In this document: positions 6,851-52,148 of the stretch, in pieces | Numbering within the stretch: the stretch's first letter is position 1 | Layout of the letters: each line of letters begins with the position of its first letter | Source: Candidatus Omnitrophota bacterium | Lineage (GTDB): Bacteria > Omnitrophota > Gorgyraeia > Zapsychrales > JANLHA01 | DNA: 64,000 nucleotides | Direction: 5' to 3' | NCBI GenBank assembly: GCA_020632555.1 | Contig: JACKFI010000004.1 | Span: forward strand, 12,335 to 76,334 | Made by a program: the position numbers and the translations under genes | The notes under the pieces: model-generated | The model's database searches: none | Seen by the model: the letters and a program-made list of their open reading frames with translations, nothing else | Told to the model about the DNA's origin: nothing

Positions 6851-7180
6851 TTACTTTAAAATATTCTGAACGAACCTCTTAAGTTCGGGAAGTTCTTTTT
6901 TACATATTTTCCACACAAGCAAATTATCCACTCCAAAATATTGGTGAATCAACTTATCACGCAAGCCAGAAATGTCTTTCCACGGAATTTGCTTATGCGC
7001 TTTACGAAAATCAACCGATAAATTCTTAACAGCTTCTCCAATGATTTCTAACTGCCGAATGACCGCGCTATAGACCAAAGCATTACGACTAAAACTATTA
7101 GCATCAACAGCTCGAATAAAATTCTCAATATGTGTTATCGCATCATCAATATGCCGCAAATAAATCTTATCGTTTTTCAT
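6851..7180 (-). CDS. hepT: HepT (DUF86) toxin of a HepT/MntA type VII toxin-antitoxin pair
   Basis: 109 aa with the Rx4HxY motif 'RDKLIHQY'. It overlaps the upstream nucleotidyltransferase gene by 14 nt. Confidence 0.75.
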   Translation of the reverse strand: MKNDKIYLRHIDDAITHIENFIRAVDANSFSRNALVYSAVIRQLEIIGEAVKNLSVDFRKAHKQIPWKDISGLRDKLIHQYFGVDNLLVWKICKKELPELKRFVQNILK

Positions 7181-7493
7181 AAATAACTCGAACAGATCTC
7201 AAAATATCCTTGCGAAGATACGGGGAAAGACTGCCTTCTGTTAAAAGATCAACTTTTCTTTTAAAAACCTTTTTCAATTGCCCTTGGGCATGAATCAAAT
7301 CTAACAAACTTTTTTCTTTAACGGCATCAAATCTAATTAAAATATCCACATCACTTTTTGTCGTTGCCTTCCCCGAGGCAAAAGACCCAAAAAGACCCAA
7401 AAACACAACATCATTCATCTCGCAAACTGTTTTAAGTTTTTCTTGAATAGCTTTTTTCCGCCATTGTGCAGGCAATCCATTGATTTTGACCAT
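7167..7493 (-). CDS. mntA: MntA minimal nucleotidyltransferase antitoxin
   Basis: 108 aa with the GSx(n)DxD NTase motif 'GLFGSFASGKATTKSDVDILI'. Confidence 0.75.
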   Translation of the reverse strand: MVKINGLPAQWRKKAIQEKLKTVCEMNDVVFLGLFGSFASGKATTKSDVDILIRFDAVKEKSLLDLIHAQGQLKKVFKRKVDLLTEGSLSPYLRKDILRSVRVIYEKR

Positions 7494-7503
7494 ACAAATT
7501 CTC

Positions 7504-8787
7504 CTATATCTTCAATCTTTGTACCAATAATGTTAGATCAAAGATCGGAATTTCTTCTTGTTGCCCATCACTCATATTCTTCAAAGTCACAACACCCTTA
7601 TTCAACTCATCTTGGCCGAGGATTATAACATAGCGCGCCTTTAATTTGTCCGCCAAACGCATTTGACTTTTCATCGAACCCAAACGATAACTCATTGCCG
7701 CCGAGAACCCCGCCTCACGGACCTGATGAGACAGCATAAAATTATGCTTCAAAACACTTTCATCCAAAGAAACAAAAACCACATCAATGGGTTTATCGTC
7801 CTGCGTCTTTTTACCCAATGCCAACAAAACCCGTTCGATACCTAATGCAAAACCAATCGCGTCCACCTGAGGTCCGCCCAATTGCGCAACCAAACCACTA
7901 TAACGCCCACCGGCACCCAAAGCATCTTGACTGCCCAAAGCCGGACACGCTATTTCAAAAACAGTATGCGTATAGTAATCCAAACCGCGCACCAAGGTTT
8001 GATTTATTTCATATTTAATATGCAAACTCTCCAAAGCTTCGCAAACTTGCGTAAAATATTGACGACTCTCATCAGAAAGATAGGAATAATCCAGATTTAA
8101 ACGCGCAACAACACTTTTACAATCTCTATTTTTGCAATCCAAAATACGAAAAACATTACGCTCAAAGCGGTTCTGACAATCTGGGCACAATGCTTGTAAA
8201 TGCGACTTCAATTGTTGCCGTAAAAAAAACGAAAAACTTTCTTTATCTTGTGTTGAGCCAAGAGTATTCAGTTTGAGCTGAAATTGTTCTTGGGGCAAAC
8301 CATAAGTTGTTAACAACTTAACACTTAAAGCAATCACTTCTGCATCTAAAAACGGCGAAGCCGAATTTGGGCCAATCGCTTCAGCTCCAATCTGATGAAA
8401 TTGCCGCAAACGACCTTTTTGCGGACGCTCACCCCGAAACATCGGGCCAGCATAAAATAATTTAGAGAGCGCCTCTTTTTTATCCAAATCATTTTGAATA
8501 TAAGAACGAACAATCGCCGCCGTTCCTTCCGGACGCAAAGCAAAATTAGCTGAATCTGTATCATCATTCTGTGATTTAAGCTGCAGCATTTGTTTTTGCA
8601 CAATATCGCTGGTTTGACCCATGGAACGAGCGAAAAGTTCGGTTTCTTCAAATAAAGGCGTACGAATTTCACGGTAACCAAAGCGAGACAAAAGATCGCG
8701 CGACTTAGCTTCAAGGTCATGCCAAAGCGCTATTTCTTCAGGAAGAATATCAGTCGTACCACGAGGAGTTGAAAAAATTTTATTCAT
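7504..8787 (-). CDS. hisS: Histidyl-tRNA synthetase
   Basis: 427 aa. 'PRGTTDILPEE', 'FRGERPQKGRLRQFHQIG' and 'GGGRY' class II HisRS motifs. Confidence 0.9.
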   Translation of the reverse strand: MNKIFSTPRGTTDILPEEIALWHDLEAKSRDLLSRFGYREIRTPLFEETELFARSMGQTSDIVQKQMLQLKSQNDDTDSANFALRPEGTAAIVRSYIQNDLDKKEALSKLFYAGPMFRGERPQKGRLRQFHQIGAEAIGPNSASPFLDAEVIALSVKLLTTYGLPQEQFQLKLNTLGSTQDKESFSFFLRQQLKSHLQALCPDCQNRFERNVFRILDCKNRDCKSVVARLNLDYSYLSDESRQYFTQVCEALESLHIKYEINQTLVRGLDYYTHTVFEIACPALGSQDALGAGGRYSGLVAQLGGPQVDAIGFALGIERVLLALGKKTQDDKPIDVVFVSLDESVLKHNFMLSHQVREAGFSAAMSYRLGSMKSQMRLADKLKARYVIILGQDELNKGVVTLKNMSDGQQEEIPIFDLTLLVQRLKI

Positions 8788-8800
8788 TTTTTTCTAATAA

Positions 8801-9000
8801 TTAATCCCACGCTTTTCAAGCGTTAGGGATGAATTTCCGCCAAGGAAACCTAAAGTTTAAGACCTGCAAATTAATCCCACGCTTTTCAAGCGTTAGGGAT
8901 GAATTTCCGCCAAGGAAACCTAAAGTTTAAGACCTGCAAATTAATCCCACGCTTTTCAAGCGTTAGGGATGAATTTCCGCCAAGGAAACCTAAAGTTTAA
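8801..9000. repeat. Perfect 70-bp tandem repeat, 2.86 copies (8801-8870, 8871-8940, 8941-9000)
   Basis: Identical units read directly. Each contains the hairpin ATCCCACGCTT-TTC-AAGCGTTAGGGAT and TTTCC-GCCAA-GGAAA. The array begins 14 bp upstream of the hisS ATG. Confidence 0.95.
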
Positions 9001-9008
9001 GGGCGGAA

Positions 9009-9037
9009 ATTCAAAAGCGGAGAAAAATTCCTCCGCT
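9009..9037 (-). terminator. Rho-independent terminator downstream of the HU-family gene
   Basis: The minus strand reads AGCGGAG-GAATTTTT-CTCCGCT followed by TTTT. Confidence 0.7.
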
Positions 9038-9100
9038 TAATTAAAACCTTAATATAAAAACACTTCGAGGATAAGAAGTCTATTTTTGTAAAGCATTAGC

Positions 9101-9373
9101 TTACTTAATCTTCTGCTTCATTTCTAAGCCCGGTTTGAAAACAACAACTTTGCGGGGTGGAACAGGAACACTAGCACCAGTGCGCGGATTGCGGCCGAAT
9201 CTTGCCCGGCGTTCTTTAATTTTGAAAACGCCAAAGTTACGCAATTCTACTTTTTCATTGCGCATAAGACTATCGACGATCACATCAAAGGTTTGTTGAA
9301 CAATGGTTTTAACGTCAACTTGCTTGATTCCGGTCGCATCAGTGATTTTCAAGACGATATCTTTTTTCGTCAT
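9101..9373 (-). CDS. hup: HU/IHF-family nucleoid DNA-binding protein
   Basis: 90 aa, 'MTKKDIV...RNFGVFKIKERRARFGRNPRTGASVPVPPRKVVVFKPG'. An AGGAGGT RBS precedes it. The longer 165-aa ORF N-terminus is a translation of the upstream hairpin repeats. Confidence 0.85.
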   Translation of the reverse strand: MTKKDIVLKITDATGIKQVDVKTIVQQTFDVIVDSLMRNEKVELRNFGVFKIKERRARFGRNPRTGASVPVPPRKVVVFKPGLEMKQKIK

Positions 9374-9394
9374 AGAACTCACCTCCTTATTGCA

Positions 9395-9426
9395 AGTATA
9401 GTATAAACAATGTGTTACGATGTCAA
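9395..9426 (-). promoter_or_regulatory. Putative sigma70-type promoter for the HU-family gene
   Basis: The minus strand reads TTGACA (9421-9426), then a 15-17 nt spacer, then TATACT/TACTAT, followed by the RBS and ATG. Confidence 0.45.
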
Positions 9427-9436
9427 GATTATTTTC

Positions 9437-9615
9437 AAACCCTTTGCGGCCATCAGCCGCAGGGTTTGATGCAAGAGCTCTCGCGACGGCGCAAACCCTT
9501 TGGCCATCAGCCGCAGGGTTTGATGCAGGAGCTCTCGCGACTGAGCATGCAATGTGCGAAGGAATGCCGAGCTCTCTGTAGCGAGGCCGACGGCGCAAAC
9601 CCTTTAGCGGCCATT
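9437..9615. repeat. GC-rich hairpin repeat, 2 full units of about 55 bp plus a partial third, between dnaE and the HU-family gene
   Basis: Units are 9437-9491 and 9492-9545, with a partial unit at 9569-9615. The core is AAACCC-TT-TGCGGC-CATCA-GCCGCA-GGGTTT. GC content is far above the surrounding sequence. Confidence 0.75.
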
Positions 9616-9624
9616 AAATAATCA

Positions 9625-12600
9625 TCACATTGTCACTGAAAAGCTTTCGGCACCGACCAATTCTTTGATTTCATTGATTAAAGCTTCGCTGGGAGCGACA
9701 AAAAGGTCTTCTCCTACCAGAATTTGCACACTTTTGAATTCTTGCGTATTCAAATGCAGATAAATCGGTGTTGTGCCGGGAAACAAGCTGAGCTTTTCAC
9801 GCAAAGATAAGAGAACCGGTTGTGTAATTGTAGACACATTTAAGTTGATGGCTTTAATGACTTTATAGATTTCTTCAATGCGCTTGATATCCCCGGCAAT
9901 AATATTGGGCGTTTCTTCACGAAAACCCACTCGCCCAATTACCACCACCACTGCACCTTCTTTGAGAATTTCCGCTACATTGGGATATGTGGAGGGAAAA
10001 ACCACCGCTTCTACTTCGCCATCCAAATCCTGAACTTTCACGATGGCCATACGCTCATTGCTTTTGCGCGTCGTCGTCAATTTAACACCGCTGATGATGC
10101 CAATAATCTTAACTTCTTGACCTTCCACCACACCTTTTAAATCTTTAATCGTATGTTTGGCAAACTCTTTGATTTCAGTCTTATAATGCGCCAAAGGATG
10201 TCCACTTAAATAAAAACCTAAAATCTCTTTTTCATACCCTAAAATCTCGTTCTTAGGAAATTCTTTAATATCAGGAAAAGCATTTTCTTGTTTTTTAAAT
10301 CCTCCCGCGCTTTCTCCCATACTAAAGAACGAAAATTGACCACTGGCCGCTTCTTTCTGCGATTGCGCGCCCCGCTCTAAAGCATTATCCAAAACCGCCA
10401 TCAATTGCGAACGCCGGACTTGCAAACTATCAAAAGCCCCGCATTTGATCAAACTTTCCACAACCTTGCGATTGGTCACGCGCAAATCCACCCGTTTGCA
10501 AAACTCAAAAATCGACTTGTATGGCCCATCCGCCTGCCGATTAGCCACAATGGATTCAATTGCGGTTTGACCAACATTTTTGATCGCCAAGAACCCAAAA
10601 CGAATGGTTTTTTCATCCATAACATTAAATTCAACAATACTTTCATTAATATCCGGCGGCAAAATCGCAATACCCAACTCTTCACTGGCATTAACATACT
10701 CGACAACCTTGTCGGTATTATCCTTTTCACAGGTCAGCAAAGCCGCCATATACTCGACGCTATAATTAGCTTTCAAATACGCGGTTTGATAGGAAATCAC
10801 GGCATAAGCGGCCGAATGACTGCGATTAAACCCATAGCCGGAAAAATAATCAATCAAATCAAAAAGTTTATTGGCCTCATCTTCCTTAATATGACTGGCT
10901 TTCAGGCAACCCTCAACAAACAATTTGCGAATCTTTTCCATGTCCTCAGCAACTTTCTTACTCATCGCCCGCCGCAAATGATCAGCCTGCGTCATCGAAA
11001 AACCCGCCAAAACACTGGCCATTTGCATAACTTGTTCCTGATAAATAATAATGCCAAAGGTGTCCTTTAAAAGACCTTCCAATTTCGGATGCGGATATTT
11101 CACCGTCGCTTCGCCACGTTTGCGTTTGATATAATCGTCGAGCATGCCCGAGCCCATTGGACCAGGCCGATACAAAGCCAGAATCGAAATCAAATCTTCA
11201 AACTGGCTGGGTTTAATTTTACGCAAAAGATCTCGCATACCAGCGCTTTCTAACTGAAAAATTCCCGACGCATTTCCTGTTCCCAAAAGCTCATAGGTTT
11301 TTTTATCATCCAGAGGTAATTTGCTTAAATCCAAATCAATGCCGCGAGTTTTTTTAATCCACTTAACAGCCTTGTCAATCACCGTTAAATTGCGCAAACC
11401 CAAGAAGTCCATTTTCAAAAGACCGATTTTGGCAATCCCGTCCATCGAAAAACCCGTGGTCACTTGTCCGTCGGTGCTTTTAAAAAGCGGAACATATTCT
11501 GTCAAAGGCTTATCCGCAATAACCACCCCGGCCGCGTGAATCGAAGCATGACGATTCAAACCTTCCAAAACTTGCGCGGTTTCGACAATATCATGCGCCA
11601 CCTGATTTTCTTGACACAACTTTGCCAACTGCGGCTCAACTTTAAGCGCGTCTTTAAGCGTCATGCCAATTTCAGCGGGAATCAATTTGGCAATCTTATC
11701 AACATCCGCGTACGGCGCGCTCATCACCCGCCCCACATCACGCACCGCCGCGCGCGCTTGCATGGTTCCAAAGGTAATGATTTGAGCCACATTATCCTTA
11801 CCGTATTTGTTGGTCACATAATCAATAACTTCCTGCCGACGCTCAAAACAAAAATCAATATCAATATCCGGCATACTCATTCGTTCGGGATTTAAAAATC
11901 GCTCAAACAACAAACCATAACGAATCGGGTCCAAATCGGTAATGCCCAAAAGATAACTGACCAAACTGCCCGCCGCTGAACCACGACCAGGCCCGACGGG
12001 AATCCCGCGCTGTTTAGCATAATGAATAAAATCCCAAACAATCAAGAAATAACTGACAAAACCCATTTTTTTAATGGTTTGCAATTCGTGGTTCAATCGT
12101 TCCTGCAAAACCGGCGTTATTACGCCATAGCGATCTTTGATACCACGCGTGCATAATTCTTGCAAATACTCATCCTTACCCATGCCGCCGGGCGGATCAT
12201 AATTGGGTAAATGATATTGGCCAAAACGCAAATCCAGATTACACTTGTCAGCAATCTCAACGGTATTCTGTAATGCTTCCGGCACCCACAAAAATTCACG
12301 CTTCATCTGATCAGGAGACTTGAAAAAAAACTGATCCGTTTTTAAGCGCATGCGATTAGGATCATTGAGGAAACTTTGCGTCTGAATGCACAACAAGGCT
12401 TCATGCGCTTTATACTGCGCTTGTTCCAAATAATGAACATCATTGGTAACCACCAACGGCAAATTCAGCTCTTTAGCAATGCGCATTAAGCCTTCATTGA
12501 CCGGCTTTTGATCCGGCAAACCATGCTCCATCAATTCAATGTAGAAATTGCCCTTGCCAAAAATTTGACTAAACTGATCAGCAGATTTTAAAGCGGCGTC

Positions 12601-50495: not shown

Positions 50496-52148
50496 TTATG
50501 CCTTATCTTCCTGAGGACAAACAATCAATGACTTATCAAAGATTGACGTTAATATATTGAGTTCACCCTCATTCCAAATCCACATCCGCTCTTGCAAAGC
50601 ACGAACTCGCGCATTTTCATCCAAACGATCAAATGAAATTAAAACACGGCGCTGCGGTTTATGAATAATTTTCCTGGTTTCATTTAATACATTATTGATT
50701 TCATTTTCACCAACCGCCCCAGACTTCAAAATAATAATCCACTCTCCATCATCAGCAACCGCACGAATAAAATCCAAATGCCCACCGGCAACCATGCGCA
50801 CCCGCGATGGCGTCATTTGTCGAAATAACGGTAATTTGTAGCGCCGTCCATTGATCGACAAAGCTTCATTTTCAAAACAGGAAAGCAGCTCTAAAACCTG
50901 CGAGCAAACATCACGTTTAGCACTGGCACAAGAGACATCATACGCACGACTAAATTCCTGCCGAAATTCTTCTTGCTGCCGCTCGCCATGATTTTCAATA
51001 ACATTACGCCGTTTATAAAAAATAAACTTCAACCAATACTTCAAAAGTCGATCTGGCAAATAATAATAATTCCCATTCTTGGCTACAATGCCAAGCTCTA
51101 AAAGTCGATTAACCCGACCAGTAACCACAGTCTGCTTGAGATTAAGACGTTCTTTAAGTTCACCAATCTTTTGTCGACCACCAGCCAAAGACAGTAAAAT
51201 TCGTGAAACAACAACATTCCCTTTACCTGAAGCGATCCGTTCAATAATCAAATCAAAATGTCGGCTCAAAACACCCCAGCGTTCATTTAATATTTTTTCG
51301 AACGCCAATGATACTAATGGCAAAAAGATTTCCGTTTGCTTATGAACAGCACATAATGCGCGCAGCTCTTCACAAATCAAGGTCAAATATAATGGCTGTC
51401 CGCCGGTAAAATCAATTAAAAAATGTGTCAACGGGCCGCTCAGTTTAATGCCTTGCAGCTGAAATTGCACAAACTCTTGGCTGGTCTTGATATCAAAAGG
51501 CTGAATCTCCAAAACTTCAAAGTTCCCAAACAGCAAAGACAACTTTTCTGAAAGAATTTTTTGTGCAGACCACAACAAGGAGCTAGCCACAACATACAAA
51601 CAACGCCGCTGAATCATTATCCGCTTGCCTAATTCTTGGAATTCATCATTAATTCCAAAGTCTTCCAAATGCTGGAATTCATCAAAAAACAAAACACAAT
51701 ACATATTCGCTTCCTGAGTAAAAGTCTGCGGCAAAGTAATAATTTCCAAATACGCTTCCAGCTCACGATTATGAGCCAAATGATTCTGGATTTTCTTAAT
51801 CGCCTTGACGGTTTGCGGCAAACAGTTTTCGGCTAAACTCATCAGAACAACTAAATCATCAGAAACAGCTAACCCTTGACGACAAACAAAATGATGCAAC
51901 AAACTACCTGCTAATCTATAAAAGAAATAGGCCAAATCCGCATTTTCCAAATCAATATAAACAGGAACAATCTGCGGATCATCCAGGTCAGCAAGAAACT
52001 TCTTAATGATCATCGTTTTACCGCTATAACGATCACCCAAAAAAGCCATATTCTGACGATAACCGTCCTTTAAATCAAAAACACGGCGTTTCAAAAGTTC
52101 TAATTTCTTTTTACGCCCATAAAACTGTTCTTGTCCAACATGGCTCAT
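50496..52148 (-). CDS. Archaeal-type AAA ATPase with wHTH and a DUF234-like C-terminal domain
   Basis: 'FYGRKKKLELL', Walker A 'GDRYSGKT', Walker B 'VLFFDEFQHL', wHTH 'VTGRVNRLLELGIV'. The start was moved to 'MSHVGQ' because the longer ORF overlaps the nlpD-like gene. Confidence 0.6.
   Translation of the reverse strand: MSHVGQEQFYGRKKKLELLKRRVFDLKDGYRQNMAFLGDRYSGKTMIIKKFLADLDDPQIVPVYIDLENADLAYFFYRLAGSLLHHFVCRQGLAVSDDLVVLMSLAENCLPQTVKAIKKIQNHLAHNRELEAYLEIITLPQTFTQEANMYCVLFFDEFQHLEDFGINDEFQELGKRIMIQRRCLYVVASSLLWSAQKILSEKLSLLFGNFEVLEIQPFDIKTSQEFVQFQLQGIKLSGPLTHFLIDFTGGQPLYLTLICEELRALCAVHKQTEIFLPLVSLAFEKILNERWGVLSRHFDLIIERIASGKGNVVVSRILLSLAGGRQKIGELKERLNLKQTVVTGRVNRLLELGIVAKNGNYYYLPDRLLKYWLKFIFYKRRNVIENHGERQQEEFRQEFSRAYDVSCASAKRDVCSQVLELLSCFENEALSINGRRYKLPLFRQMTPSRVRMVAGGHLDFIRAVADDGEWIIILKSGAVGENEINNVLNETRKIIHKPQRRVLISFDRLDENARVRALQERMWIWNEGELNILTSIFDKSLIVCPQEDKA

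Follow-up and report, generated by a model that had tools for sequence, protein, structure and literature searches.

The spacer between an HU gene and hisS in this Candidatus Omnitrophota genome carries an RNA module with two hairpins, A and B, in 2.9 perfect tandem copies. The best reading of this region, to which we give a probability of about 0.6, is that the module is a structured RNA specific to this lineage, located in the intercistronic leader between HU and hisS, and that it gains and loses tandem copies. The module is quite probably a functional RNA. It matches no Rfam family, and we propose it as a new candidate mRNA leader element. All coordinates refer to the window, which is the whole 64-kb stretch of DNA analyzed, and related loci are given L numbers.

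The HU-hisS spacer and its tandem array

On the minus strand, dnaE (13059-9625) is followed by the HU gene (9373-9101), hairpin T, a clamp sequence, the array, hisS, a HEPN/nucleotidyltransferase pair and aspS. The order dnaE-HU-hisS-aspS was kept in every relative fetched that retains these flanks, and the HU-hisS adjacency persisted down to 62% HisRS identity. HU identity was rejected as a guide to relatedness, given that 98% identical HU proteins occur at only 65-74% HisRS identity.

The homologs of hisS carry PF13393, PF00587 and PF03129, and are named histidine--tRNA ligase of Candidatus Omnitrophica. The N-terminus of the hisS product in the window lines up with what we take to be the N-terminus of E. 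coli HisRS, and thus the ATG at 8787 looks right. The exact 427-aa HisRS has no record in the protein collection, and the neighboring proteins MCB9757251-53, -55 and -56 do have records; the deposited annotation may place the hisS start elsewhere or handle the gene differently. Downstream, a pair of genes encoding DUF86 (HEPN) and nucleotidyltransferase proteins lies at 6851-7493, between hisS and aspS, in this genome only. The hisS-aspS gap is 14 nt in L001, and a GIY-YIG gene together with another ORF is found at the same position in L007. This junction seems to be an insertion hot spot.

The lack of a Shine-Dalgarno sequence ahead of hisS, noted in the preliminary description of this DNA, was borne out: the ATG is preceded by UUAGAAAAAAAUG, with no GGAGG-type motif. 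The relatives carry UAGGAAAA ahead of hisS, from which the window differs by a G-to-A change (UAGGAAAA to UAGAAAAA). Since dnaE in the window has a similar A-rich leader, likewise without a Shine-Dalgarno sequence, the absence is unremarkable in this genome. The HU gene has a strong Shine-Dalgarno sequence, AAGGAGGTG.

Tandem Repeats Finder placed the array at 8799-9001, with a period of 70, 2.9 copies, 100% matches, no indels and a score of 406. A separate repeat search returned copies at 8799-8868 and 8869-8938 with 100% identity, and a further one at 8939-9008 with 94% identity that overran the end of the array. Both searches confirmed the three perfect 70-bp tandem repeats described earlier, though the count of exactly three rests on a short-read metagenome assembly and the copy number may be wrong. 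The window contains exactly three copies of the 38-nt core of the unit, versus 0 expected from shuffles. The array does end close to the hisS ATG, at a gap that is 11-13 nt depending on the phasing of the unit (14 bp was first given).

The clamp GGCGGAAATTCA (9002-9013) is a 12-nt perfect inverted repeat of TGAATTTCCGCC, whose three occurrences lie at 8830-8841, 8900-8911 and 8970-8981. Its exact complementarity to each unit, which had been recognized from the outset, therefore holds; the position originally assigned to it, 9003-9013, was off by one, the complementary 11-mer GGCGGAAATTC being located at 9002-9012. The features of the spacer and its flanks are as follows, R2 being a six-module covariance model.

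7504-8787, minus strand: hisS (ORF), encoding a histidyl-tRNA synthetase of 427 aa, directly downstream of the array
8788-8803, minus strand: linker and ribosome-binding region UAAUUAUUAGAAAAAA before the AUG, from the sequence; the AGGA of relatives is AGAA here
8804-8873, minus strand: unit 3, closest to hisS (R2 match of 61.6 bits)
8804-8830, minus strand: hairpin B of unit 3
8831-8841, minus strand: 3' arm of helix A in unit 3, sense GGCGGAAAUUC, with A-loop sequence next to it
8862-8873, minus strand: degenerate 5' arm and junction of unit 3, sense UAAUUUGCAGGU
8874-8943, minus strand: unit 2, identical to unit 3 (R2 match of 61.6 bits)
8874-8900, minus strand: hairpin B of unit 2
8901-8911, minus strand: 3' arm of helix A in unit 2
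8932-8938, minus strand: junction filler of unit 2, 7 nt, sense UGCAGGU
8944-9012, minus strand: unit 1, the complete ancestral-type module (R2 match of 92.4 bits; covariation), which folds to -31.2 kcal/mol
8944-8970, minus strand: hairpin B of unit 1 (5 bp, 2-nt bulge, 6 bp, GAA/UGAAA loop)
8971-8981, minus strand: 3' arm of helix A in unit 1
8982-9001, minus strand: A loop of unit 1, 20 nt
9002-9012, minus strand: 5' arm of helix A in unit 1, which is the clamp, sense GAAUUUCCGCC
9015-9038, minus strand: hairpin T, AAGCGGAGG...CUCCGCUU, terminator-like, 2 nt upstream of the module (scan for terminator-like sites; eight invariant pairs)
9101-9373, minus strand: gene for an HU/IHF-family DNA-binding protein of 90 aa, the upstream neighbor (MCB9757255.1, PF00216)

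The GCGGAG/CUCCGC core of hairpin T was kept in relatives down to 62% HisRS identity, as seen in the spacers of L007, L012, L013, L015 and L019. Such conservation appears to exceed what a plain terminator needs. In L007 and L019, hairpin T has no U tract, being followed by AAAAUUU, and about 20 nt separate it from the hisS ATG. We also observed that the 5' arm of hairpin T contains GGAGG.

Other repeats were present in the window as well. At 1184-1255, about ten tandem heptamers (CCCCTAA/CCCTAAT on the plus strand, TTAGGGG on the minus strand) lie ~55-125 nt upstream of a minus-strand gene that has its ATG near 1131 and an AGGAG Shine-Dalgarno sequence; this G-tract repeat in a promoter/leader region could form a G-quadruplex. 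The dnaE-HU spacer (9436-9608) contains a GC-rich unit of ~54 nt, present as two to three imperfect copies in tandem with 93% identity, bounded by AAAGGGTTTG direct repeats and located just upstream of a promoter-like site of the HU gene, TTGACA-17-TACTAT. In L001, these AAAGGGTTTG repeats enclose another GC-rich insert, which is different and longer, and the dnaE-HU spacers of L005 and L006 are only 60-90 nt. The repeat in the dnaE-HU spacer looks like an inserted element.

Structure and possible role of the A/B module

On the hisS-sense strand, the module comprises ~70 nt with the two hairpins A and B directly adjacent. Helix A (GAAUUUCCGCC, 20-nt loop, GGCGGAAAUUC) has an 11-bp stem formed by the clamp and its nearest complementary arm, and its loop has the conserved core UUUAGGUUUCCUU. 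Hairpin B (AUCCC-UA-ACGCUU-GAA-AAGCGU-GGGAU) follows directly 3' of helix A. Its lower stem, AUCCC/GGGAU, is invariant and is separated by a 2-nt bulge from a 6-bp upper stem that covaries; the loop is mostly of the GNRA type and reads GCAA, GGGA or AGAA among relatives. The lower B stem and the bulge are conserved in sequence, as is the A-loop core. Downstream of B there is UAAUUU or GAAUUU, with no canonical U tract. Two hairpins had initially been assigned to each unit; of these, hairpin B is real, and the second local hairpin is weak (-5.7 kcal/mol).

Covariation was assessed in an alignment of six distinct sequences from one clade, spanning T, A and B. Standard pairs occupied 99.4% of the cells, and 6 pairs were altered on both sides. 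Shuffles matched the observed values in 0 of 500 cases for four of the five measures and in 1 of 500 for further pair types, and controls with slid partners gave pairing of only 39-54%. For four of the six compensated pairs the main source is a single relative, L009, which also provides most of those in helix A. RNAalifold, which was not given the structure, returned the same T, A and B helices together with a short inner extension of A. All one-sided changes (columns 34-69, 38-65, 40-63 and 85-90) led to U·G pairs on the hisS-sense strand, and since these changes would be C·A mismatches on the opposite strand, the structure belongs to the sense RNA. A covarying sense-strand structure is thus found at a fixed place between hairpin T and the hisS ribosome-binding site, as would be looked for in a structured leader in general.

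The clamp helix is therefore real and maintained by compensatory substitutions. The proposal that the clamp has three alternative partners is not supported, given that the relatives support pairing with the nearest arm only (helix A of unit 1). Where an array has several units, the 5' arm of the later ones is degenerate and their helix A is lost; the three alternative partners are therefore a by-product of amplification and not a conserved design.

Several further candidate interactions and signals were rejected. Pairing of the A loop with the Shine-Dalgarno region (UUUCCU/AGGAAA) holds in L009, L010, L016 and L018, and is lost in L020, the window, L001 and L005. An alternative pairing of T with an A arm through the shared GCGGA/UCCGC is not conserved where helix A of the relatives covaries. 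A putative promoter in the unit that overlaps the B loop (TTGAAA-17-TAGAAA) has a -10 without the conserved final T and occurs in the last unit only. A promoter scan of the array found no promoter-like site, and the hisS transcription start could lie downstream of the array.

Given that the relatives without the module have only hairpin T and ~20 nt ahead of hisS, with no room for a promoter, HU and hisS would be co-transcribed. The A/B module may act post-transcriptionally on the hisS-aspS part of the message. HU proteins are assumed to be highly expressed, and the module could uncouple hisS expression from the upstream HU gene. As to its specific role, a processing, stability or insulating structure for the hisS message is the likeliest candidate, and we suggest it tentatively. 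The two extra copies in the window would add two B hairpins and two unpartnered A arms, and this polymorphism is most likely neutral or mildly tuning. A copy-number expression tuner, which had also been suggested, gained no support from thermodynamic folding: the predicted mean unpaired probability of the ribosome-binding site (positions -18 to +15) was the same, 0.49, with 1, 2 and 3 units.

The module could instead be a specific hisS riboregulator that binds a trans factor (HisRS, tRNA-His, HU or a metabolite) and controls translation or read-through. One version would be HisRS autoregulation like that of thrS, with tandem copies giving cooperative or graded control as in tandem T-boxes and riboswitches. 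The conserved unpaired A-loop core, and the lower stem and bulge of B beside covarying stems, are typical of ligand- or protein-binding RNAs, and the association with an aminoacyl-tRNA synthetase gene is strict. There is also precedent in the 2-3 tandem leaders before thrZ and trpE (PMC2494555) and in hisS leaders, which are known to switch sensing system (PMC2965389). However, cmscan against Rfam at E<=10, run on window 8700-9700 and on L011, L017 and L020, gave no match to the T-box (RF00230), the tRNA clan or another family, apart from generic sub-threshold matches to hairpin T only, which agrees with the earlier judgment that this is not a T-box. At the gathering threshold, Rfam returned only a tRNA-Gly in the whole window, and ARAGORN detected no tRNA in the spacer. 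By inspection, tRNA mimicry of the thrS type was not seen either: the module shows neither a conserved anticodon-like loop with GUG nor an acceptor mimic resembling G-1:C73/CCA. Alternative pairings with the Shine-Dalgarno sequence or a terminator are not conserved, the module is missing in close relatives, and later array units lack helix A. On this balance we regard such a riboregulator as unlikely.

A His leader-peptide attenuator was also looked for and rejected. Every frame of the 313-nt spacer is closed on both strands, the longest open stretch being 41 codons, antisense; the sense frames contain 1 His codon each, with no consecutive His codons.

Constraint, locus specificity and copy number

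Between the window and L016, L018 and L020, the four-fold sites of hisS are 0.39-0.42 identical, which is near saturation, and the module is 81-84% identical. Between the window and L001, the corresponding values are 0.71 for the four-fold sites and 100% for the module. On these comparisons, the module is evidently under purifying selection as an RNA structure. The preliminary description had taken the perfect identity of the copies to imply recent expansion or homogenization, but the single-copy module is also 100% identical across 29% four-fold divergence. Under such selection, a perfect match among the three copies cannot alone date the amplification.

These results bear on whether the array is a functionless minisatellite, that is, a neutral duplication in the spacer whose palindromes are kept by template-switch repair and not by selection. 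Such an origin would accommodate the variable copy number, the absence of the module from some relatives and the flanking AATTT microhomology, which fits slippage; the tandem repeat in the dnaE-HU spacer likewise suggests that this genome tolerates such arrays. It accounts poorly for a module that keeps its sequence where neutral sites are near saturation, for compensatory changes that maintain both helices, for strand-asymmetric wobble pairs and for the conserved A-loop sequence, as template switching would not maintain a loop. We therefore consider a functionless array improbable, a shade more so than the riboregulator.

The locus of the module was examined with covariance models. A five-unit model, searched against 202 kb comprising the window and the loci of relatives, gave matches only in HU-hisS spacers, and R2, run on the whole window with filters off, scored 92, 62 and 62 bits on the three units. 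The next-best R2 match (51630-51678, 18.6 bits) was rejected as noise, lying antisense inside a 651-aa ORF. These spacer-only matches support the suggestion of a leader or intercistronic element that belongs specifically to hisS, and a generic dispersed repeat, the other possibility raised at the outset, does not fit matches that are confined within the 202 kb to the HU-hisS spacer. No second module locus was found in the 64-kb window or in ~140 kb of relatives, the filter-free covariance search of the window included. An exact 23-mer and a degenerate hairpin-B pattern had 0 matches in 185,579 GTDB species genomes, JGI metagenomes and IMG/VR, and the element is thus confined to a clade outside the GTDB, JGI metagenome and IMG/VR collections. 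BLAST against phages and plasmids gave no matches.

If a small, non-autonomous MITE- or REP/BIME-type mobile element had inserted beside hisS and been amplified locally, it would share several properties with the module. The module is palindromic and ~70 nt long, forms tandem arrays as BIMEs do, is precisely present or absent among relatives, and is flanked by short AATTT(T) direct repeats, though the latter are equally consistent with slippage. However, the many dispersed copies of a REP/BIME or MITE were not found in the 202 kb, with filters off in the window; the lack of a second locus in the window and relatives, of pattern matches in the large collections, and of hits in phages and plasmids makes a mobile element very improbable. 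A CRISPR array was rejected because the copies do not differ anywhere along the 70-bp unit, which leaves no variable spacers, and an attC site because inspection showed no R/L box consensus.

The conserved leader RNA that we favor is variable in copy number, as had been anticipated, with 0, 1, about 2, at least 2.5 and 2.9 copies across related populations. The closest relatives, L001, L002 and L004, are three independent assemblies with 90% HisRS identity and ~90% DNA identity in the flanking genes. They have a single unit that is 100% identical to that of the window from the clamp through the ATG. Their HU-hisS spacer is 173 nt, versus 313 nt here, and the difference is exactly two 70-nt units. 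Given that these relatives have one identical copy, the array in the window would be an amplified form of a pre-existing single-copy module, and we hold this to be very probable.

Among more distant relatives, L016/L017, L018 and L020 (~79% HisRS identity) have one module each. L009 has about two, the first complete and the second shortened and degenerate. The sister assemblies L011 and L010 have at least two to three diverged units, arranged as T, a full unit 1, a unit 2 with degenerate A and intact B, and a partial last unit. L005 resembles a deletion fusion of two units, and L006 and L012 have different hairpins at the position of the module. The module is absent from L007/L008 and L019 (78-80% HisRS identity), and as these three relatives live without it, it is dispensable.

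The repeat junction of 7 nt (sense UGCAGGU) is absent from single-copy relatives; no assembler can make up such a sequence, and two or more copies are therefore real. This junction is unexplained by simple duplication of an L001-type sequence, and in L009, L011 and the window alike the second unit starts with (G/U)AAUUUG. Two units may have been the ancestral condition of the clade with >=89% HisRS identity, followed by homogenization here and loss in L001. The AATTT(T) direct repeats that flank the module are one unit apart, and slippage or unequal exchange between them could produce both precise loss and arrays with a 70-nt period. That the assembler created the repeat or its copy number is barely credible: 203 bp of perfect 70-bp repeats is by our own reasoning near the de Bruijn limit (k ~127-141), and three related contigs break inside a unit (L011 and L010 both end, and L003 starts, inside hairpin B), but the junction (TGCAGGT as DNA) cannot come from collapsing or expanding one copy, and independent assemblies of related populations also show multi-unit arrays.

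Significance and comparison with known systems

To our knowledge, almost nothing is known of gene regulation in the Omnitrophota, which are uncultured. Covariation supports the A/B module as an RNA motif; it matches nothing in Rfam and goes with a single housekeeping aminoacyl-tRNA synthetase gene, and its natural variants with 0, 1, ~2 and ~3 copies form a ready series for testing the effect of an intercistronic structure. It also illustrates that a perfect tandem repeat in a metagenome-assembled genome can be an amplified conserved functional element. The significance is moderate, given the narrow distribution and a function that is a candidate only. A bolder proposal, which we put at long odds, is that the module represents an undescribed class of aminoacyl-tRNA synthetase leader riboregulator in Omnitrophota, sensing HisRS, tRNA-His charging or another signal via its loop and bulge, with gain and loss of tandem copies retuning hisS. 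If true, copy gain and loss would be how these small-genome bacteria retune hisS expression.

Among known intercistronic elements, the REP/BIME sequences of enterobacteria, for example between malE and malF, are imperfect palindromes with strain-variable tandem copy number, and are thought to set the relative expression of cistrons via mRNA stability. REPs occur in hundreds of dispersed copies and are mobilized by RAYT transposases. The module is likewise made of imperfect palindromes between genes with variable tandem copy number. Unlike REP/BIME sequences, it was detected at the HU-hisS spacer alone, and one of its loops is conserved and not palindromic.

The thrS operator of E. coli mediates translational autoregulation by tRNA mimicry, with stem-loops just before the start codon. 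The module also places stem-loops directly ahead of an aminoacyl-tRNA synthetase start codon, whereas no anticodon-arm or acceptor mimic of tRNA-His was recognizable in them by inspection.

In bacilli, 2-3 adjacent T-boxes precede thrZ and trpE (PMC2494555). Compared with these tandem T-box leaders, the module has no specifier loop, terminator/antiterminator or tRNA-binding features, is ~70 nt long, and loses one helix in its later copies. It shares with them the arrangement of a 5' leader module of an aminoacyl-tRNA synthetase gene, repeated head-to-tail two to three times with a copy number that varies by species (PMC2494555). The leaders of hisS are known to switch sensing system, and both His leader peptides and T-boxes have been described upstream of hisS paralogs (PMC2965389). 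Unlike these leader peptides, the HU-hisS spacer has no ORF or run of His codons; like the leaders of the hisS paralogs, the module is a candidate leader specific to the hisS family.
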